Positions 4,730 through 62,590 of a stretch of DNA of 64,000 nucleotides are shown here, one piece after another; within the stretch, counting starts at the first letter, position 1; every line of letters starts with the position of its first letter. Source of the stretch: Synechococcus sp. GTDB taxonomy: Bacteria; Cyanobacteriota; Cyanobacteriia; PCC-6307; Cyanobiaceae. The translations under genes were made by a program, and so were the position numbers. Location of the stretch: NCBI GenBank assembly GCA_047285535.1, contig JBJBDC010000001.1:384136-448135 (forward strand), read 5' to 3'. Below the pieces are notes generated by a model. The model searched no databases, was not told the origin of the DNA, and saw nothing but the letters and a program-made list of their open reading frames with translations.

Positions 4730-5722
4730 TTTGGCAAGAGTTTTTTTGAGTGGATCACACCAATAAACCATTGACTCAATGTGGGTTGTTTTGGTGCGCT
4801 TGTGGCGCCTTACCTACTAGCTGCTGTTGACAGCTTCATCATCGCTTTCATCGCTGCCCATCCCATGAACATCGGCGGAATCTGGCCTTTCTTTATCGCG
4901 CTTGTGTTTGGCCACAACATGGTTTCTGGAGCTGTTGTGCCTGGCTCGAACGCAATCGGATCCCACTTCTTCCCATCAGGGAGGCAGCCTCGATGCAAGA
5001 GTGGATTGATAACGGCGGCCGTTATCAGCTCGCCGTCTTCCACTTTCTGATTGGCATCTCTGCCTATCTGGGTTGTGAGTGGGAGTTGTCCTATCGCCTG
5101 GGGATGCACCCCTGGATCTACGTTGCTTACTCAGCTCCAGTTGCAGCAGCGACTGCTGTCCTCCTCGTCTATCCCTGCGGGCAAGGCTCCTTCTCTGGTG
5201 GCCTACCGCTGGGCCTTAGCGGAACCTTCCATGGCGAGCTCGTCTTCCAGGCAGAGCACAACATCAATGGGCACCTCTTCCAGATTGCAGGGGGCGCGGG
5301 AGTCTTCGGCGGTGCACTTGGCTCGGCGATGCATGGCGCTCTTGTCACGTCCTCTTTCATTCGTGAGACCGCGCCAGAAGTAAGCCTGTCTTAAGAACAC
5401 AAGTTTGGATAGGCAGAAGAGACGTGCGTGCAGCTGAGTTGCCGCTCAAGGCTCCTACGCACATCTGAATCTTCGAATACCCAAGCTTTCAAACGAGCCG
5501 CTCACTTCAATTGTTTTTGGTTGTATGACCTGTGGTGGGTATCGGCTGGCTGGTTTTGCTGGATCGAAGTGACTTTTAACATCAATGATTTTAACTTCAA
5601 TCCATCCAGTCAGGCGATGATTGTGCTGTTAATGCCTCGAGAGATCTCCTTAACCGAGCTGCCCTAGTACGGAGGTGATGAATGAACTTAATGCGCACTA
5701 CTTACAACTAGATCTTTGTTGA
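4730..5722 (+). pseudogene. psbA: Decayed photosystem II D1 pseudogene
   Basis: D1 segments in several frames ([64 protein letters not shown]) with frameshifts and stops. Confidence 0.92.
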
Positions 5723-40024: not shown

Positions 40025-40098
40025 CGGGGTGTAGCGCAGTTTGGTAGCGCGCCTGCTTTGGGAGCAGGATGTCGCAGGTTCGAATCCTGTCACCCCGA
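40025..40098 (+). tRNA. tRNA-Pro(TGG); left border of island
   Basis: CGGGGTG acceptor stem, anticodon loop TTTGGGA, GGTTCGAATCC. Confidence 0.96.
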
Positions 40099-40131
40099 TG
40101 CCCAATCAACCAGTCCCCAGCTGGATTCTTC

Positions 40132-40156
40132 GCCACTCCAAAGGGTGGCTTTTTTA
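40132..40156 (+). terminator. Intrinsic terminator after tRNA-Pro
   Basis: GCCAC...GTGGC hairpin followed by T-run. Confidence 0.7.
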
Positions 40157-40918
40157 TTGCTTACGCACGCGTGTGTGGTCAGGGTGTGGTCAGAGCACAC
40201 GAAAACCCAGTGCTGACCACACAACTTTCCGAGCATCAGGACCAACCTCCCATCACCATTGCCATACTGTTTTCACCGACAAGAGCGATCGCGAAGGCTA
40301 TCCAATCCCGGGGTCGGTCTCTCCAAGCTCACCTTCATTAGTGAGTTTTCCGTACTGCCCCTGAGGGCGGGCTGATGGTGTTGGTCCTGAACACCTCAGT
40401 CGTGCCATGACGCGCTCTAACAAACAGGACAAATTCGCTCACAAAGCCAAGTTCACGACACGCATTGACGGTCAAAACTTCACTGCTGATGCGAACGATC
40501 GATGAGCTTGTGCAATGTTCCCTCAACTGGGATCCCCAGCAGATTCGTGTTCTGTTCAACAAAGTCTCTGGGATGACCGATATTATGTCTTTAATCTCTT
40601 CCTTATCATTCCTAATTGCCGTCCGATACCTGGCACTCTTTAATAGCTAGCTTCGCCACAAGCGGGGTTTTTTAGTGCGCTCTGATCGTTGTGAGCAATC
40701 GTTTGAGTAACTACGCGCTAGGAGCAATGAAGCCTCTGTTGCCTAACCGTTATCGGTTCTGTTCGTCTGACTTCAGAGTGTCCTGAACATCCCTAGGCGT
40801 GTAGATCATTAGGCAGATAGGTGAAAACGATGCCAGCCTAAACGGAGAAGGGTTAGTTGGCTTTGAGCAAGATCACAACTGCTCATGAGCGTGGTCATCA
40901 ACTGATCCAATCAATCAA

Positions 40919-42478: not shown

Positions 42479-42924
42479 AACACAAACGCCCCGACCAGCT
42501 TTTTTTGGTGGGGCTGCATCACTTATGCCCGTAAAGATCGATCCAATCAATTGAGCCCCAGCCCCCTTCCCTGAATTCGTAGCCGCGGCGCTGAAAGACG
42601 ACAGCGGGGAACACTCAGGTCAGTCACGTTTGACCCGTTACCCTTGACACCCGCATTGTCCTGTTCCTGATGGGAGAACTACGCGCCAATGATCCAGACC
42701 TCTTCAATCGATGGCTGTCTGGGGGCGTTCAAGACCTAGGGGAGCCAGTGGTGGTGGAGTTGCTGCTGGACTGGCTTGACCCGTTCCTGACCGTGGAAGA
42801 ATAGGACAGGCTGATGGCTTGGCAGTTAGGGGTAAGTCTCTAGGTCTTATGGGGAATAGAAAAGCAGTGATCACTATCCTTTTGGGGGATGCGTGGATTA
42901 TTCGTTTGTTCAGAGGCTTGGATA

Positions 42925-43116
42925 ATGAATCATTCAGCCGTCTTGGTCCTACTCCTGCTTGCGGGATGCTCTTTGAAAGCAGCGCTGCCGACTGTCTCAA
43001 TTCAACGTTGCTACTACGGCGATACTTGCACGACATCCTCAGGAGAGAAGATTCGACTGGCTTGCATTGACACCCCTGAATCGCTAAACCGCACCTCCTT
43101 GTTCGGTTTGAAGTAG
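42925..43116 (+). pseudogene. Truncated lipoprotein thermonuclease (SNase-like) fragment
   Basis: LAGC lipobox then CYYGDTCTTSSGEKIRLACIDTPE, ending abruptly; paralog of 44130. Confidence 0.75.
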
Positions 43117-43168: not shown

Positions 43169-43873
43169 ATGGCTTCCCGTACGGAGTTAAAAGAGGACGC
43201 TCTCAAGTTGCTGATTGGCATTCTGCAGTCAGCAAAGGATCCTGAACATATTTTTAAGCATGCCAAATACTTATCTATTACAAACAAGTCAGAGCTTCAA
43301 CAGCAAGCTGTCAAACAGCTCTTGGATCATCCACATCTTCAACCTCTAATTGAGGAACGATTTGCCATCCCATGGCCCTCACTCGACCAGATGAGTGCGA
43401 TGCCAAAAGGGAGTCTTGGTTTTTGTATGCAGCAAAGACAGAGAAGCCTGGGCATTGATCTGCTACCAATACCATCACCAACAACGGACAACAAGGAGGA
43501 TTATGTCTTGTATAGAAGCGGAATATGTCATGATCTCCTCCATCTCGTTCTAGGTCTACCGAACACTGTGGCTGGAGAAGCAGCAGCTAGCGCTTATAAC
43601 TCAATTACAAAAAAGATGCCACTCCACGTAGGAGCATTAGCTATGTGGTTAACCCACGGTCTCATTGAGCCAGAGGAGCATCGAATGATCTGGGAAGGAA
43701 TTTGTTTCGGAGCCAGAATTGGTTTTGATGGGCTTTTGTTAGATGCTTATCGATGGGAAGAGGGATGGGAAAGGCCATTAGAAGAATGGAGAGCTGAATT
43801 AGGTCTTCTTCCTCTACTGGAACAGTCTCCTTTTCAGGATGAAGTTCATCGCTGGGAGGTGCTTCCTTCCTAA
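43169..43873 (+). CDS. Coq4-like protein (copy 1)
   Basis: MPKGSLG, HDLLH...GE, YRWEE.WERPL.EWR.EL. Confidence 0.8.
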   Translation: MASRTELKEDALKLLIGILQSAKDPEHIFKHAKYLSITNKSELQQQAVKQLLDHPHLQPLIEERFAIPWPSLDQMSAMPKGSLGFCMQQRQRSLGIDLLPIPSPTTDNKEDYVLYRSGICHDLLHLVLGLPNTVAGEAAASAYNSITKKMPLHVGALAMWLTHGLIEPEEHRMIWEGICFGARIGFDGLLLDAYRWEEGWERPLEEWRAELGLLPLLEQSPFQDEVHRWEVLPS

Positions 43874-46883: not shown

Positions 46884-47397
46884 TTCATACACTATCTATT
46901 ACTGATGTTGTATGGAGCCTAACAAAGTTATAAACACGGACGTCAAAAAGCTGTGCCGCTTGTTCCTCGCTATGTAACTTTTTGCCTCCGGTTACGGCAG
47001 GCGATGATGGCCAGTGATGGCTTCAACGCTGGTTACAACGCCGCAACAAACGCGCTAAAGCGTGATCACGAGTTAGTGGACTTGCTCCTCAGCTCGGAGG
47101 TTCATGTGATCCTCGGACATAGCTCTTCCCGCTTCCTGTTCTGAAAACAGTGAGCCACCGCTGCGCTTGATCGGTAAGCAAATATTGCCAGGATCGTTTT
47201 TCTTGGTAACACCAAGCTGCAGCATGCGAGCTTCGATAATCGTTTGTTATTTCATTTCTTTGCCTTCTTGTTGATTTTGAGTCCTGCTACTGCTCTTAAT
47301 CCTGCCTCGCAATGACTGCAAACTCGTGATCCTTTAGGCGCTAACAGCATTTTCTCAGGCCATCCGCTTTTTCGTCTTGTAGTAACAGCACCAACAG

Positions 47398-48162
47398 TTA
47401 GTCCAGCAGCTTTAGCAGCGTCTGATTGACACATGCGCTATTGATTGTGTCATCAACAAATGTCATCCAATTATCTGCTGAATTAAATATCGCATAGATT
47501 TGATCATCTCCTTGGGTCGCTTGCCCAAATGCCATCAAATCTTTAATCTTGACTTCTCCTTCAATATCGTCAAAGCCATCGCCATTATGGTCTTCTATAT
47601 CGACCTTAAATTCACCTTTCTTTGTCATGAACTGAGCACCAGCTGTCGCATCGTCAGACGAGGAGAAGAAGATCGATTCCGATGAATCGTCTGTGAAATT
47701 AGTGTTTTCATCTCCAAAGAGAACAACTTCAATCTTGCCTTTCCCTTTAGAGAGTTTGACCTTCCCGTCCCATTCCATGGTTCCAGTCAGTGGATCAATG
47801 GCTGCATCCCAATCCCCAGCAGCATCAGAGGACTCAGACTCAGCCACACCAGAATCAGGCCTAGCAGCTTCATCAGCTTCAACCGCAGGAGGCGCAGGAG
47901 CCTCAGGAGCTACAAATTGATCTCCGCTATCGCTATAAATTGCAGCTGTAAGAGCATTGATGACATTGTCATCGACTTCTTGAGCAACAAAACCTGCAGT
48001 AATCGCTGGTTCGCCGATTTCAGCAGATTGAGTGGCAATTATAAATGGGCCAGCATTATCAGATGATGCGGTAATTGCATCGTCAGCGATAAATCCAACA
48101 TCACCAACAATTGGTCTTATGACAAGGCCAAACGAACCTGAAACTGCTGGAGACTCCAGCAC
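47398..48162 (-). CDS. Highly acidic hypothetical protein, possibly 5'-truncated
   Basis: Asp/Ala-rich; DHNGDGFDD Ca-binding-like loop; DPLTG motif. Confidence 0.55.
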   Translation of the reverse strand: MLESPAVSGSFGLVIRPIVGDVGFIADDAITASSDNAGPFIIATQSAEIGEPAITAGFVAQEVDDNVINALTAAIYSDSGDQFVAPEAPAPPAVEADEAARPDSGVAESESSDAAGDWDAAIDPLTGTMEWDGKVKLSKGKGKIEVVLFGDENTNFTDDSSESIFFSSSDDATAGAQFMTKKGEFKVDIEDHNGDGFDDIEGEVKIKDLMAFGQATQGDDQIYAIFNSADNWMTFVDDTINSACVNQTLLKLLD

Positions 48163-48274
48163 CTTATGTGGGGGAGCTGAGAAGTTGAGCCATATTTACC
48201 GGTATCGCCTTAGATGCTGCACTGCCCTCTACTGAGATCGTTACTGGCGCACCGGAGTTTTTGTCAACACTTAG

Positions 48275-49159
48275 TCAGAACTGAGTTTGACGTTGAAGGC
48301 CCAGAATCTCGTAGTAGCCATCTGGCAGAGGCAGGCCCTGCCGGCGGGCGTCAAGCTCTACCGCACGGCGGAAGGCAGGCAATGTTTCATTCCAGCTGAT
48401 TAGACGATCACCACGGGCGAAGCTGAGCCGCTCCAAACCAAATCCCGCATTGCGTACAGCAGCGGCACGGTCATCAGTCAGAGTGATTTCGCCTATTTCC
48501 AGTTCGCTGCCGTCAGCAAGGAGATATTCAAGCGAAAGCGTGTTGAAGGAGGGGGTGCGAGGATGCCCCTTGGGTTCGAAGTATCCGGAGCCAGTCCCTA
48601 GAGCTCGGGCTTTGTCCCAGTCCACCAGGCGTAACTGCGACTCGACCAAGCCATGCTTAGCAAGAAAAGGCACTAGAAAAAGGGCCTTTTCAGTCCCTGT
48701 GAATCGCATCCGATTGGGCTCTAGACCAAGATGACGAATCAAGAAATTGAAGGTCTGATCCAGAGGAAGTAAGCCCTTGGGGTCTTTGCTCTGATCAAAG
48801 TTGATGATGTGAAACAGCGGCAGAACACCAATCCTGTCCTTCTGCTTGATGTCCTCTACTCGCGCCGCTGGCTGAATCACAAACCGCCCAGCAAGGCTTC
48901 CCTGGATTTCATCGTCAAACTGCAGACCGCCATTGAAGGCATCTTCTGTCACCAGAGGAAGAGGGGCCGTCAGCCGGTAACCCCGTTGCTGGAGATGCTG
49001 AGCGAGTTCATCAGCCAATCGAAAAGTCTGAGGATTCAGCGTCGGCGGCAATTGCGCAGCATTAGCTGCTCTTGAGCGTCGAGGTAAACCAATTGACACT
49101 GCGCTAAGTCCTGAGAAGGCGGCAACTGCAAGAAAGGATCTGCGCAGCATCAAAGACAC
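48275..49159 (-). CDS. Alanyl-tRNA synthetase catalytic-domain-like protein with twin-arginine signal peptide
   Basis: LRRSFL...SRA Tat signal; QPAARVEDI (motif 2-like), FL...LGLEPNRMRFT, ELEIGEI, AGFGLERL (motif 3-like). Confidence 0.65.
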   Translation of the reverse strand: MSLMLRRSFLAVAAFSGLSAVSIGLPRRSRAANAAQLPPTLNPQTFRLADELAQHLQQRGYRLTAPLPLVTEDAFNGGLQFDDEIQGSLAGRFVIQPAARVEDIKQKDRIGVLPLFHIINFDQSKDPKGLLPLDQTFNFLIRHLGLEPNRMRFTGTEKALFLVPFLAKHGLVESQLRLVDWDKARALGTGSGYFEPKGHPRTPSFNTLSLEYLLADGSELEIGEITLTDDRAAAVRNAGFGLERLSFARGDRLISWNETLPAFRRAVELDARRQGLPLPDGYYEILGLQRQTQF

Positions 49160-50283
49160 CGTGAAAGTTATGTAGCTCTAGCAACAACTGAGATCGTTGT
49201 CGGCTGGGCGAAGCTCCTTTGAGACCCTTGAGGAGGTGCGTCATCACCCCCGGGGGGAGAGGTCGGCTCAGCTTGGTGGCAGCACTATGAGCCAATGACT
49301 CTGACCTGTTCAATCGGTGGCTGTCTGGTGGCTTGCAAGACTTTGAAGAGACTGCCGTGGAGGTGCTGCTGCAGGACTGGCTTGACCCGTTCTTGACGGA
49401 AGCGGAGCAGGCCAGGCTCCTGGGTTGACACCTAGGTGTGAGTCTCTAACTAGATGGGGAGTGAGTCAGCGAAATAAATACCTCAGACTGGGGATGTGAA
49501 GAACAATGGCGTGATTATTCGATGAATTAAGCTATTTCTAACCAGGAATAGGCTTACTCATCTTATCTTTCGAAATTGGCGTTGGGATTCCCAAATCATG
49601 ACCTCCCAAAACATTTCCTTTTCTTTTGGGGCGTCAAACTCTTTGCAGCTGTCAATATTATCGGGTCGATTTATTTTCTCATGAGAATTGATGTATTAAC
49701 GGCAAGGATGCTCGAGTGCTGACGATGGCTGATTGCGTAGATCTTCTTGCAAGTTTGCCGGCATTTTAAGTTAATCTATCAGTTTTTTTTCTTTTTATTC
49801 TCATGTTTGTGATCTGGTTATGTAGATTGATATTGCACTGTCGTTTTCGTGGCGTCCATTGCTGACTGTCTTTGTAGAGTGGAACTAAACTTTGAACGAA
49901 AATCAATATAATGCCAATTGCAGAAACGGTCCACTCCCCCTCAGGCCTTCTTTTTCGGCTTTCAAATTCTGTAGAAAATTAGCACTATCTAAATGCTTAT
50001 GCTGGTATTCTCGTCATGCATGGTATGAGTTCGATGATCTGAATTCATGCTTTTCGGTATTTATTGCTGCTTGATCTGAAAGCCATAACTCTTCTGCCAG
50101 GCTTTTATTGATTGATTTAACTGTGTTCGACTTTCTTGCAATCTCTAGATATTTTGATTGTTTGGTTTTTGGGATCGGTGTTTCCCACTCTTTTTGGACA
50201 ATTTTTTCACTTCATTCCTGCTATGAGTTTACTATTAAGTTGCGAGTTGGATACTGAGATCACTCTCGTTTTTCATGGCGATG

Positions 50284-53957: not shown

Positions 53958-54437
53958 TCAAAAAGAAAAACCAGCCCCGTATAAAACCTTATGAGTGGCG
54001 AGAGGGATCGTCTTGCAATGGCCAAACTTGGAAGCAAACAGAGGCTTTCCATTTTTCATCCCTAACGACTTCGTCGTGGTTTTGAGGGTGCTCAAATCGA
54101 CGATGAAATCGCTGCCAACTGGCGGGTTGAGAGCAGTCAACACACGCTCCCCATCCTGCTTACTCCACTCACCAACGCGGGTTTCGATCACAAAGCTGTT
54201 GCCCTTGATCCGACCCTTAGTTTTTACCGAAAAACGATCCACAGCTTGCGGCGTATAAACATTGTCTGGCTGGACATGGTGATAGAGCTGTCCCGTCTGA
54301 CGATCAAAAACAGGCGCGCGATGCACCGACTCCCCTGTGCACTCCAGTCGCATCAGCGACGGTGCACTGCTGCAACCACTGAGGACGACAGCTAGCAGAA
54401 GCATTGGAGAACAATTTTGCAGATCCAATGGGTGCAT
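53958..54437 (-). CDS. Putative lipoprotein
   Basis: LLLAVVLSGC lipobox. Confidence 0.65.
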   Translation of the reverse strand: MHPLDLQNCSPMLLLAVVLSGCSSAPSLMRLECTGESVHRAPVFDRQTGQLYHHVQPDNVYTPQAVDRFSVKTKGRIKGNSFVIETRVGEWSKQDGERVLTALNPPVGSDFIVDLSTLKTTTKSLGMKNGKPLFASKFGHCKTIPLATHKVLYGAGFSF

Positions 54438-54664
54438 GGGACAAGGGGCGAGGGTCTTGTTTCTCCATCACCCTGCCGATGGCACCAGCTTCAGGCTGTG
54501 ACCGCGCCCACTGCCATCTGTGAGAGAGAGACAGGCTGATGGCTTGGCAGCTGGGCGTGAGCCTCTAGGCCTTTTGGGGGATTGGTCAGCAGTGATCACT
54601 AACCGTTCGGGGGATGCCCCTTCACCACCCTGTCAGCGACTGTGCCATCAGACGCAATCAATCA

Positions 54665-55798: not shown

Positions 55799-56503
55799 TT
55801 ATTGTTCAGGTGGATCTAGCTCTTCCTGAAAAGGGCTCTTTCGCAGCACTTCCTTGAGCTGCAGTAGTTCACGCCATTCATCGAGCGGTTTTTCCCAGTC
55901 CTCCTCCCAACGTGCAGCGATAATGTCATCCCCCACTTCTTTGGCTACTTCCAGTCCAAACATAATTCCATCCCAGACGTCAGGCTTGGCACTTTTATTT
56001 TCTAGGGCGTGAAAAATCCATGCAATCAGGAAAGCTGCTGAGCCAAATTCGTTCATCGTGACGCTGTAATAAGTAGCACCCGCAGCTTCCCCGGCAGGAG
56101 TGATTGGGGTCCCGAGAATCAGATGTAAGAGGTCATGAGTGCCTAAACGTCTGGCCTGTATGTACTCACCATCAGAAAGTTGAGACCCCGGCGGGGATGG
56201 CTGCATAAGAGGAAGGCCTAATCGATCATTGCGTCTTTGAAAGCAACTACCTAAGCTTCCATATGGCATTGATCGAAACGTTTTAGAATCAGGCCATGGG
56301 TGAAAGTAGCGTTCTCGCGCTAACTCCCGTAATTTGGTTGACTCTAGTTGACGTGCACGAGCAATTTCCCCTAAAGGACTGTGATTGATCGTCTCAATCA
56401 TCGGTAGTCCATGAATGAGTGCATGATCAGGATCTCTTGCTGTCTGCAAGACACCAATCGCTGTTCTCAGTGCATCATGACGAAGGGTACGCAGGTCTTG
56501 CAT
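55799..56503 (-). CDS. Coq4-like protein (copy 2)
   Basis: MPYGSLG, HDLLH...GE, ARWEEDWEKPLDEWRELL. Confidence 0.8.
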   Translation of the reverse strand: MQDLRTLRHDALRTAIGVLQTARDPDHALIHGLPMIETINHSPLGEIARARQLESTKLRELARERYFHPWPDSKTFRSMPYGSLGSCFQRRNDRLGLPLMQPSPPGSQLSDGEYIQARRLGTHDLLHLILGTPITPAGEAAGATYYSVTMNEFGSAAFLIAWIFHALENKSAKPDVWDGIMFGLEVAKEVGDDIIAARWEEDWEKPLDEWRELLQLKEVLRKSPFQEELDPPEQ

Positions 56504-57556: not shown

Positions 57557-57668
57557 ATTCTTGAAGCTGATGAATTTGTCTGCCAAAACAACTCACACCT
57601 AACAAATCCTGCCAAGAGCGGAGTTTTTTATTACAGCTGGGAATGCTTTAAGCAGTTACCTCTGATCA

Positions 57669-57935
57669 ATGCACCTTGAAACCAAAATTACGTTGGCTCT
57701 GCTTCAGGAGCTACTGATGGCACTAAGGGCTAATGACGCTGAGGGCTTCAAGTCTTGGCTTGCCTTTGGCATTGAAGAGCTTTGAAGGGATGTGGCTGGT
57801 TAGGTCGAGTCAAATTGGATGGTGCCCTTGTTGGTTGAAGTGGAGCGAGACAGGCTGATGGCTTGGCAGCTAGGGGTCAGTCTCTAGTCCGCTTGGGGAA
57901 TAAGACCGCAGTGATCACTAACCGTTTGTGAGATG
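57669..57935 (+). repeat. Repeat B, most complete copy (decayed 72-aa mini-gene plus GCAGTGATCAC tail)
   Basis: MHLETK...LRANDAEGFKSWL...E*RDVAG*VES...DRLMAWQLGVSL; homologs near 41700, 42660, 49280, 54522, 60500. Confidence 0.8.
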
Positions 57936-58363
57936 CGTGGATGATTTGTTTGTTCAGAGGCTTAGATAATGAATCATTCCGCTGTCTTGGTCCTACTCCT
58001 TCTTGCTGGATGCTCCCTGAAAGCAGCTGCTTCCTCCTGCGCCATCGCTTCATTCCATAGCAGCTTCAGCAAATCGCGCTGCAAGAGGGCCAGGCTTCCA
58101 CCCAACGTCACCACGCCGGCGCCCAAATCTTCCTCAGTGATCAGCTGGCAGCAGCGAGCCAGATCCAAGTGATCCTCGAAGGCGGTCTGCATCCAGTCGT
58201 CCATCAGTCCTCAATCCCGTTCCCTAAGTCTGCTGGGAGTGTTCCCCCTAGGTATCGAGAGCGTTTCACCCAAGCAGGGGGTCCGCTGAGCCGCCCCAGG
58301 GGTGATGTAGGAGATATGGCACCAACAACCCTCCAGCTGTTGAGTGCTGAGGACGATGGCTCT

Positions 58364-59911: not shown

Positions 59912-59968
59912 TGGGGAACTCTTAGTGAGTATCAAAATCTCATGTCGGACAAAATACTATTCATCCTC

Positions 59969-60122
59969 ACCCCGCCACGAGCGGGGTTTTTTTGATTGCC
60001 TACTGAATTGCCAGCAACGCTGAAACGGCCCACTTCACCAGGCTTTCTGGAACCCTGTGAGCAAGATCACATCCCTGTTTGATGCAAGCCATCACCTCTC
60101 CGATTCATTCGAGAGATGGTGT
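59969..60122 (+). promoter_or_regulatory. Repeat A module (terminator 59969-59993 + perfect CRP-like box 60056-60071)
   Basis: ACCCCGC-CACGA-GCGGGGT-TTTT; TGTGA-GCAAGA-TCACA. Confidence 0.75.
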
Positions 60123-60361: not shown

Positions 60362-60384
60362 TGAGTGGTTTCTAGGACTAATGA

Positions 60385-60408
60385 GCCCCGCCACGAGCGG
60401 GGTTTTTT
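60385..60408 (+). terminator. Intrinsic terminator (same family as the repeat A hairpin)
   Basis: CCCCGC-CACGA-GCGGGG-TTTTTT. Confidence 0.8.
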
Positions 60409-60775
60409 GTTGCAGCGGGGAATACTTCAACCAGTTGCCTCCTAGTACTGACTCTCGACACTCAGATAACGCTGGCTTGGCTTCTGGAAGTGCTGATGGC
60501 ATTGAGAGCAAACGATGCTGATGCATCCAGGAGTTGGCTTGCACTGGGAATTGAAGAGCTTGGTAGGGAAGTGGATGCTGAGTTCGAGTCTGAGTGGATG
60601 GTGCCTTGATTGGTTGAGACAGGCTGATGGCTTGGCAGCGAGGGGTGATCCTCTCGCTCTTATGGGGAATCAGACAGCAGTGATCACGAACCGTTTGGGG
60701 GATACGGAGTCATTCCGATTCAGAGATGGTGAATGCACGGGGGCAAAGAGACCTCAACAATCAACCACCAAGCCA

Positions 60776-61484: not shown

Positions 61485-62145
61485 ATATTTTATCTTCTTT
61501 AGAAATAATTAGCAGCCATAGCCTGGGAAAGCAGCCAAAAAAGTAGGCAAGAAACGATGCCCGCCACCTGCTGGTTTTTTTATTGCCTATATGCCGTTGT
61601 GAGCAACAGCACAGTCCTATGGGAGAGCTACTCAGGCAAAGCACTGGAATACCTCTAGGTCACTGACGAGATAGAGGAAGCGATAACAAACTATGAGCGA
61701 GATTTTCGATAACTACAGGCTTCATAGTTGCGAATCGCGCAACAGCAGAACATCGCAACACGAAAAGAACCAAGCTCATAGCATGCATCTAGCGATCTTG
61801 AGTGAGTACTTTGACCTAACTTTTGACGCCTGGCGAAATTTAATGAAGTTGTGTGCTTTTATATTTCAGCCGTCCAACCATTGCTCAATGATTTTCTTTG
61901 CGGGAACTTTAGTAGCCACAACTACCGTGGCATTTGTAATTGTCATGCGCACCATTTTAAAAGAGCTTGATATAAAGCCTTCGCTACCAACTCTTCCTTC
62001 AATAAGCCTTTCTTTTAGGAAGCGTTCAGTTCAGTCAGCCAATATCTGAACGGCCCAGCCCAACGGCATCAGCTCAATCTAATGTCGACTATCAGAGGCA
62101 GGTTTGCTGAATGTAGCTATTGATCTCCTGACTGAACATGCATTG

Positions 62146-62211
62146 ACCTCGCCACGAGCGAGGTTTTTTATTGCTTACTGAAGAACAGCAACGCTGAAAC
62201 TGCCCACTTCA
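62146..62211 (+). repeat. Repeat A, truncated copy (hairpin + spacer, no CRP-like box)
   Basis: ACCTCGC-CACGA-GCGAGGT-TTTT...AGCAACGCTGAAACTGCCCACTTCA. Confidence 0.75.
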
Positions 62212-62590
62212 ATAGACAAAAGAAAACCCCGCCAAAGGCAGGGTCTCTCGGCTTCTCGTTGGGCGTGTTACCTAGTTTCCACTCCGTGAAGAAGCCCTCC
62301 TCACATATGAATAATGCCTCAGAAACCCGGCAAAGCAAGTCCCTTCGTATCAGTTGATTGACTGTTCTGTGCAATTTCCTCAACATGTGCACGGCCAACT
62401 CCTCAAAAGGTTTGGCTCCTCACACCCATGAAGAGGGCTTAGCCGCCTTCTTTTTTATGCCTGGTTACTCAGCAGAAGCAGGCAGCAACCCAATGACTTC
62501 GAGCCAAAGGGCGAGCCAGAGCAATGGATGGCTTTACAAAGAGTTACAAATTCACCTAAGCTCTGTCGCAAAAGTTCATTGGCGCTTCTC

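Follow-up and report, generated by a model that had tools for sequence, protein, structure and literature searches.

A bacterial protein family with a predicted twin-arginine signal peptide and a stand-alone core remotely related to alanyl-tRNA synthetase

Paralogs of aminoacyl-tRNA synthetases have been a source of new chemistry in amino-acid biosynthesis, in the modification of elongation factor P (EF-P) and in the loading of carrier proteins. According to the relevant sections of a review on such paralogs (PMC9437257), synthetase cores used outside translation include HisZ, asparagine synthetase A (AsnA), EpmA/PoxA and the amino acid:carrier-protein ligases; in these sections only the latter ligases are listed under alanyl-tRNA synthetase (AlaRS), and the words "periplasm" and "secreted" are absent. 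Here, we analyze a gene at 48275..49159 on the minus strand of a 64,000-nucleotide stretch of Synechococcus sp. DNA (contig JBJBDC010000001.1, positions 384,136 to 448,135; this whole stretch is referred to as the window). Profile comparisons and structure models lead us to conclude that the gene is a member of an unannotated bacterial family of predicted stand-alone, remote homologs of the AlaRS aminoacylation core. Taking the evidence on fold, active site and signal jointly, we consider it probable that the protein is an exported AlaRS-core paralog that binds a ligand of the adenine-nucleotide or acyl-adenylate type, holds its second substrate in a way different from that in which AlaRS holds alanine, and cannot charge tRNA. 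In the open-access literature, a scope that leaves subscription journals and closed supplements outside, we found no description of a synthetase-like protein exported via Tat (twin-arginine translocation).

The open reading frame (ORF) at 48275..49159, whose strand was absent from the initial annotation, encodes 294 amino acids from a GTG codon plus the stop codon; all features of the protein described below are given in this numbering and lie on the minus strand. The fourth codon is an ATG at 49150, from which a protein of 291 amino acids beginning with M-L-R-R would be translated. Because the database protein P0002 (291 amino acids; 100% identity over 99% of the query) begins at this ATG and most relatives also begin at the equivalent position, two residues ahead of the Arg pair, we regard 48275..49150 as the likelier coding sequence. 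The landmarks that the initial annotation had read from the translation are all present and in the order given there, i.e. an N-terminus with twin arginines ending in S-R-A followed by RGY...PLPLV, QPAARVEDI, FLIRHLGLEPNRMRFT, ELEI and AGFGLERL.

A word-indexed search recovered 31 relatives of this protein, and 118 hits were obtained when 1.84 billion cluster representatives were searched exhaustively with HMMER, 90 of them with an expectation value (E) of 1e-10 or lower. The sole long hit, P0136 (853 amino acids), is a repeat protein that matches by chance and was dropped; the family, therefore, has no fewer than 117 credible members in a clustering at 50% identity. The credible relatives are nearly all of approximately 240-310 amino acids and none exceeds 384 amino acids; fused forms are absent among the 118 hits. 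A source name is attached to nine relatives, and it reads "hypothetical protein" in every case; neither Pfam nor NCBIfam has a model for the family. The conservation counts given below refer to 98 sequences of 240-310 amino acids (alignment A2), equivalences to AlaRS were assigned by hhalign, and the literature numbering of Escherichia coli AlaRS corresponds to the translation index minus one.

The AlaRS-like class II catalytic core is predicted to span residues 43-275 (48335..49033). When the profile of the 98 family members was aligned by hhalign with residues 1-441 of E. coli AlaRS (sequence taken from NC_000913.3), the match had a probability of 94.4% and an E of 9e-8 over 230 collinear columns, relating residues 43-275 of the query to residues 3-272 of AlaRS. 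Three other E. coli class II enzymes served as controls and gave probabilities of 12.6% (GlyQ, 111 columns), 53.8% (PheS, 33 columns) and 1.9% (HisS, 25 columns); by these profile comparisons, none of the other synthetases tested is as close to the family as AlaRS. In a comparison of the family profile with the sequences in PDB, the top two matches were archaeal AlaRS (E 0.2-0.3), aligned in three collinear stretches that correspond to motifs 1, 2 and 3. With the query as a single sequence, PHROGs and PADLOC gave no match, and the only phmmer match to PDB sequences was a BTB domain (E 1.5), which we attribute to chance. Of the 98 members, only one touches an NCBIfam model for AlaRS (NF002436, E 0.0097).

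The structure models point in the same direction. A template-free AlphaFold2 model of the query was obtained with a predicted local distance difference test score (pLDDT) of 86 and a predicted template modeling score (pTM) of 0.82, residues 1-32 being disordered. In a Foldseek search of PDB with this model, each of the 14 best listed rows was a catalytic fragment of AlaRS (E 9e-10 to 4.5e-7, probability 1.00), with a template modeling score (TM) of approximately 0.5 on the full precursor length; next came entries that bear only the label "tRNA synthetase", presumably PheRS, and after these GlyRS-alpha, PheRS and HisRS. The model of P0113, a relative without a signal peptide that is 26% identical to the query, had a pLDDT of 93.8 and a pTM of 0.90, and its 13 best listed rows were AlaRS with TM 0.55-0.61, the next fold having TM 0.40. 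The two models share rows of the family alignment and are, thus, a replicate rather than independent proof. At the level of a lead, the third-nearest cluster in the ESM Atlas is tRNA-synt_2c at 0.80; those ranked ahead of it bear the name "hypothetical", and 12% of their members have TAT_signal. Taken together, the fold is that of AlaRS, and class II motifs 1-3 follow one another as they do there. The AlaRS-like catalytic domain proposed in the initial annotation is borne out by these data, in which the class II synthetases found by Foldseek are headed by AlaRS (E 9e-10) and the hhalign match reaches 94.4%. The alternative that the resemblance reflects chance or a generic alpha/beta similarity, and that the protein has no relationship to class II synthetases, could draw on the low sequence identity to AlaRS in the structural alignments (12-16%) and on the lack of matches to curated AlaRS hidden Markov models (HMMs); however, a Foldseek probability of 1.00 and E of approximately 1e-9 for two models, collinearity over 230 columns, coinciding motif residues and the far weaker scores of the three control enzymes make it hardly credible.

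In AlaRS numbering, the protein comes to an end at residue ~272, where the helical domain has its first helix, and it has no helical tRNA-recognition, editing or C-Ala domain, in agreement with the initial annotation, which had noted that the editing and C-terminal domains are absent. It closes with two predicted helices (residues 256-274 and 280-286 in the model; region 256-286, 48302..48394) that end in a conserved P-x-G-Y motif, of which P279 and G281 are nearly invariant in alignment A1; in the alignment with AlaRS, the first of these helices falls on the beginning of the helical domain. Because the protein ends at this helix and no fused forms were found, we suggest that it has no AlaRS-type means of recognizing tRNA.

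As described for the AlaRS-ATP-alanine structure (PMC12143591), the adenine is sandwiched between the Phe of motif 2 and the Arg of motif 3, the Arg of motif 2 contacts the alpha-phosphate, and Asp235 binds the alpha-amino group of alanine. In the family, motif 2 (residues 92-122, 48794..48886) is modeled as a strand-loop-strand element with strands at 92-98 and 116-122 and includes Q96, R100, D103, L113 and F116. R100 is equivalent to AlaRS R69 and F116 to AlaRS F90, and each is kept in 97 of the 98 members; D103 is kept in all of them. Motif 3 (residues 235-248, 48416..48457; strand 235-241 and helix 242-248) includes G241 (97/98), E243 and R244, the last being equivalent to AlaRS R242 and invariant (98/98). 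According to the column counts and hhalign, an E-I-G-E strand (48488..48499) carries E221, which corresponds to AlaRS E209 (kept in 95/98), and E224, which takes the position of AlaRS N212 (90/98); T226, at the position of AlaRS V214, lies in a varied column (G28 S18 V15 T6 and others). Finally, a G-x-G-S-G-[YFW]-F-x-P-x-G-H-P motif at residues 188-200 (48560..48598; G190 94/98, S191 91/98, G192 98/98) forms a family-specific loop without a clear AlaRS counterpart.

Since R100, F116 and R244 are kept and the position of Asp235 is lost, we conclude from the column conservation that strong constraint acts on that part of the site which faces the nucleotide and that the amino-acid side has been rebuilt. 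Likewise, the loss of Asp235 means that an "alanyl" specificity should not be assumed. The initial annotation had suggested an amino-acid- or adenylate-binding protein or an extracytoplasmic ligase; this possible role is consistent with the conserved ATP-site residues. Binding of an adenine nucleotide or adenylate, a second substrate that is held otherwise, and an inability to charge tRNA are all properties that we infer from these data. Because the HMM match, Asp235 and the tRNA-related domains all fail, we file the family apart from AlaRS, as a distinct paralogous family and not as an AlaRS.

Two types of evidence, protein sequences and genomic loci, bear on the localization of this domain. 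Tat signals are described as beginning with an N-terminal S/T-R-R-x-F-L-K-like motif, to which an h-region no shorter than 12 residues and a c-region containing the cleavage site are joined, basic c-regions being a Sec-avoidance feature (PMC7317946). The predicted Tat signal peptide of the query spans M4-A31 (49067..49150) and is supported by its sequence, by the family consensus and by pLDDT values below 50 for residues 1-32. It has L-R-R-S-F-L-A in the n-region with the twin arginines R6 and R7 at 49139..49144, an 18-residue h-region and a c-region that ends in S-R-A and has three Arg residues, which fits the Sec-avoidance feature (PMC7317946); the putative cleavage site was placed by the rule of small residues at -3/-1. 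Residues 32-42 (49034..49066) would link the signal to the domain, given that the alignment A1 columns are variable here and that the model has no regular secondary structure before residue 43.

In 83 of the 98 full-length relatives, twin arginines lie among the first 30 residues and a hydrophobic stretch comes after them, and one further member has the arginines after an over-long start (84/98 in total). The residue frequencies around these arginines give the consensus [T/S/D/N]-R-R-x-F-L-K, with F at +2 in 41/84, L at +3 in 42/84 and K at +4 in 25/84; this agrees with S-R-R-x-F-L-K, the published Tat consensus (PMC7317946). Among the 14 members without the RR pair, five are N-terminally cut or start inside the h-region, one has RK, one has RS, two have Sec-like signals and five have no signal at all. 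In a sample of 37 genomic loci, which were retrieved via the 28-sequence alignment A3 and are biased to carriers of the pattern G-S-G-[YFW]-[FY]-[EA]-P-[KVA]-G-H, the RR motif is encoded upstream of the domain in 35 and in frame with it in 33; the two loci without an encoded motif (L005, L035) both end at a contig edge. A Met codon precedes the motif by 2-5 codons in 83/98 members and in the 33/37 loci with the motif in frame. In two loci from metagenome-assembled genomes (MAGs), L003 (9966-10816) and L037 (9729-10582), the part encoding the RR signal is frameshifted relative to the catalytic domain, either by an assembly error or because the gene is a pseudogene. The HMMs Pfam TAT_signal PF10518 and TIGR01409 match 13 and 6 of the 98 members, respectively, and, when the family profile was compared with PDB sequences, the Tat signal peptide of CueO ranked third (E 0.88). 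Exported lipoproteins are marked by a lipobox-type Cys where the h-region ends. Such a Cys closes the h-region in eight loci (L004, L006, L008-L013), mostly labelled as Actinomycetota, and the sequences thus identify the protein as a predicted Tat lipoprotein in some lineages.

The initial annotation had identified a Tat signal and had left room for a misassigned start; the homologs retain the RR pair (83/98 members; 35/37 loci), and because they do, we conclude that the start is not misassigned. Conservation of the predicted export signal across phyla further leads us to regard it as real and as a family trait. If the RR segment were instead a product of a misassigned start, an uncleaved anchor or simply irrelevant, the domain would be cytoplasmic and an ATP-dependent chemistry would make sense; the TAT_signal HMMs, which do not score the query, and the five relatives without any signal fit this explanation. 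We nevertheless consider it very unlikely, because members from different phyla keep the motif in their protein sequences with a Met 2-5 codons ahead, eight loci have the lipobox Cys at the end of the h-region, and the basic n-region would stay inside so that the domain would come to lie outside even if the segment were not cleaved.

The 37 loci derive from Synechococcus/Synechococcaceae, from Actinomycetota including Acidimicrobiia, from Stappiaceae (Roseibium/Labrenzia) and other Alphaproteobacteria, and from MAGs labelled Chthoniobacter, Kuenenia, and beta- and delta-proteobacterial. The family spans Cyanobacteriota, Actinomycetota, Verrucomicrobiota and several proteobacterial classes. In an unrooted tree of 64 rows (30 loci, the window gene and 33 hand-picked representatives; L005, L024, L028, L029, L035, L036 and L037 were omitted as truncated or frameshifted ORF calls), the seven cyanobacterial rows form one clade with a support of 100 in the Shimodaira-Hasegawa-like approximate likelihood ratio test (SH-aLRT). 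This clade is nested within a 26-row clade (support 95) that mixes five phyla, and this nesting suggests that the gene has spread horizontally. Four of the signal-less sequences form one long-branch clade and the fifth is on a separate long branch; without a root, the tree is compatible with gain as well as with loss of the signal.

Combining these data, we return to the reading of the protein as an exported AlaRS-core paralog with an adenylate-type ligand. In this scheme, the protein would be routed out of the cytoplasm by its twin-arginine signal peptide, and the Tat route would be needed because the protein folds and loads a nucleotide, or forms an adenylate, in the cytoplasm before export. 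After export, it would act as a ligase or transferase on a small envelope-bound or dissolved substrate in the periplasm, in the thylakoid lumen or at the cell surface. A precedent is reportedly provided by the NADP-containing glucose-fructose oxidoreductase of Zymomonas (Halbig 1999), which is said to be exported by Tat with its cofactor already bound. This sequence of loading before export and catalysis outside, which we draw by analogy, is put forward tentatively, as the possibility that we prefer among several.

Several observations weigh against the reading as a whole. (i) The homology to AlaRS is, by profile and fold comparison, remote: Pfam tRNA-synt_2c (PF01411) matches none of the 98 members at E <= 0.01, and the query alone is matched by no Pfam or NCBIfam model at E <= 10. 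(ii) The TAT_signal HMMs (PF10518, TIGR01409) give the query's own signal no score, and five of the 98 relatives have no signal; therefore, the activity of the fold is not intrinsically extracytoplasmic. (iii) N237, which occupies the position of AlaRS D235, is not conserved (G30 A16 S13 V8 E5 N4 of 98). (iv) In the 37 loci and the window, no neighboring gene family is common across clades, sharing being confined to within clades. (v) We know of no pool of ATP or tRNA outside the cytoplasm, and a conventional adenylation cycle is hard to picture there.

Further-reaching versions of the export model can be formulated. Among enzymes derived from synthetases, the protein could be the first that works outside the cytoplasm: as a ligase with an AlaRS core, it would bind ATP or form an acyl- or aminoacyl-adenylate while still in the cytoplasm, cross the membrane in folded form by Tat and deliver the activated group to an acceptor in the envelope or the extracellular space. 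Alternatively, it could be a survivor of a single-domain AlaRS/bacterial-GlyRS lineage, given that a single-domain lineage of the catalytic domain shared by AlaRS and bacterial GlyRS has been postulated in a preprint (bioRxiv 10.1101/2023.05.29.542759). We regard these versions as unlikely.

The genomic context was analyzed by all-against-all clustering of 2,519 ORFs from the 37 loci and the window and by Pfam scans of 274 of the 276 neighbor ORFs, the two ORFs that were dropped being split pieces of the target gene in L036 and L037. Because no neighbor is shared across clades, the context indicates no partner or acceptor. In the three Synechococcaceae loci, the gene is found in three different neighborhoods. 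In the Actinomycetota-labelled loci L006 and L008-L010, a gene for a PhyH-type dioxygenase lies upstream on the same strand. Farther upstream, L006, L008 and L009 have a carotenoid cluster (phytoene synthase, lycopene cyclase, hydroxylase) and a NUDIX gene, with a carotenoid desaturase seen in L008 and L009; L010 ends at a contig edge. This PhyH/carotenoid linkage may be mere synteny of closely related loci. Similarly, a convergent choline sulfatase gene lies beside the family gene in the Stappiaceae loci (Roseibium/Labrenzia), and we draw no functional inference from either the PhyH or the choline sulfatase neighbors.

The lack of a conserved enzymatic partner or acceptor gene nearby would also be expected if the protein were a non-catalytic periplasmic binder of an amino acid, a nucleotide or an adenylate-like compound that functions in sensing or sequestration, as HisZ does with histidine. 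Such a protein would not depend on an ATP supply, which the outside of the cell does not offer, and the synthetase-paralog review provides the precedent of HisZ, which is without adenylation activity (PMC9437257). Yet, the motif 2 Arg, the motif 3 Arg and the two Glu residues are kept in 90-98 of the 98 members down to approximately 25% identity, which is more than simple ligand binding usually needs, and no transporter or signaling partner is conserved beside the gene. On balance, we find a mere binder rather doubtful, and we continue to favor the exported paralog with a constrained adenylate-type site.

In the window, the gene lies in a stretch of ~24 kb (40.1-64 kb) that contains short, mostly family-less ORFs and has a tRNA-Pro(TGG) gene at its left edge (40025-40098, plus strand). 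This stretch looks like a tRNA-flanked variable island. An island-like position beside tRNA-Pro, together with the patchy, transfer-like distribution of the family in aquatic bacteria of many phyla, could suit an extracytoplasmic enzyme that acts on adenylated compounds by hydrolysis or by the reverse reaction, either to scavenge or to detoxify them, e.g. aminoacyl- or acyl-adenylates, adenylate-mimicking antibiotics or AMP-containing cofactors, and that needs no external ATP. Retention of the adenine and alpha-phosphate contacts with a remodeled amino-acid side of the pocket agrees with this idea, as does the existence of other Tat-exported scavenging enzymes. However, we know of no such activity for a synthetase fold of class II, the gene has no linked genes for resistance or uptake, and the idea is purely inferential; we consider both the hydrolase and its envisaged targets improbable in comparison with the favored exported paralog.

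The remaining features of the island and the window are described for completeness. Upstream of the target gene, neither an Rfam family (49100-50100, E <= 1) nor a sigma-70-like promoter was detected; the whole region 47200-49900 has no such promoter and one weak terminator-like site. A very acidic ORF of 254 amino acids at 47398-48162 (minus strand) starts 112 nucleotides downstream of the target gene on the same strand; it has no match in Pfam, PHROGs or PADLOC and, by ORF clustering, does not recur beside the relatives of the target. Pfam matches in the island comprise an SNase nuclease, a helix-turn-helix (HTH) protein, a glyoxalase, a DUF6636 ORF and two Coq4-like ORFs, and one ORF has only a sub-threshold match to a DnaJ domain. 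The two Coq4-like ORFs, each of 234 amino acids (43169-43873, plus strand, and 55799-56503, minus strand; E 1.3e-12 and 1e-5), represent an unexpected family for a cyanobacterial island. A repeated element with a well-conserved core of ~95 nucleotides is present on the plus strand in five copies (~42640-43000, 49246-49480, 54400-54640, 57684-58044 and 60463-60730). One copy, which is degenerate, lies ~100 nucleotides upstream of the target start in the opposite orientation to the gene. This element has no Rfam match, and its plus-strand consensus folds into two small hairpins with little covariation. In addition, a terminator-like GC hairpin followed by a T-run occurs in seven island copies (40131-40160, 40649-40678, 57605-57634, 59968-59997, 60384-60413, 61557-61586 and 62145-62174), and a match to the Rfam Cyano-1 RNA lies at 62246-62310 on the minus strand (53.4 bits; gathering score 41). 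The window is of picocyanobacterial origin, and its Pfam content includes Ycf54, PdxJ, glucosylglycerol-phosphate phosphatase, DUF3721 and a Photo_RC fragment. The latter is an ORF of 133 amino acids at 4993-5394 (plus strand) that matches positions 61-184 of the 260-position Photo_RC model and appears to be a partial reaction-center gene of the psbA/psbD type.

By its residues, the family sets an intact ATP-type site beside a near-universal Tat signal, and it thereby offers a test case for the use of a nucleotide-dependent fold outside the cytoplasm and for the question why some soluble proteins need Tat. If the load-before-export scheme were true, it would represent energy-coupled chemistry in a compartment without ATP. 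Moreover, a minimal AlaRS-like core of ~250 residues is relevant to the evolution of the synthetases.

Compared with described systems, the family resembles the glucose-fructose oxidoreductase of Zymomonas in that a soluble protein which binds a nucleotide carries a canonical twin-arginine signal, both properties being predicted here; the oxidoreductase differs in its unrelated Rossmann fold, and pre-export loading is in the family hypothetical. With HisZ, asparagine synthetase A, EpmA/PoxA and the amino acid:carrier-protein ligases, the family has in common a synthetase core without tRNA-binding parts; unlike the family, paralogs of the HisZ/AsnA/EpmA type are, to our knowledge, all cytoplasmic, and we know of none that derives from the AlaRS core, nor is one listed in the sections of the review considered above (PMC9437257). 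Because the hhalign match to HisRS is negligible, the family is not of the HisZ lineage. GlyQ, the alpha subunit of bacterial glycyl-tRNA synthetase and the other small catalytic domain related to AlaRS, is similar in size (~300 amino acids), in consisting of the core only and in its structural subclass, and it is among the later Foldseek matches (E ~1e-5); it differs in its low hhalign score (12.6%, 111 columns) and in that it is cytoplasmic and works with a tRNA-binding beta subunit. The closest relationship is to the AlaRS catalytic domain (E. coli 1-441, PDB 3hxu; Methylomonas, 9jc7). Although the family is set apart from this domain by its length of only ~250 residues, the N-terminal Tat signal, a conserved Glu in place of Asn212 and the loss of Asp235, the two share the fold and the order of motifs 1-3, the N-x-G, Q...R...D, Phe, E-I-x and G-x-G-L-E-R elements, and the ATP-contacting Arg, Phe and Arg.

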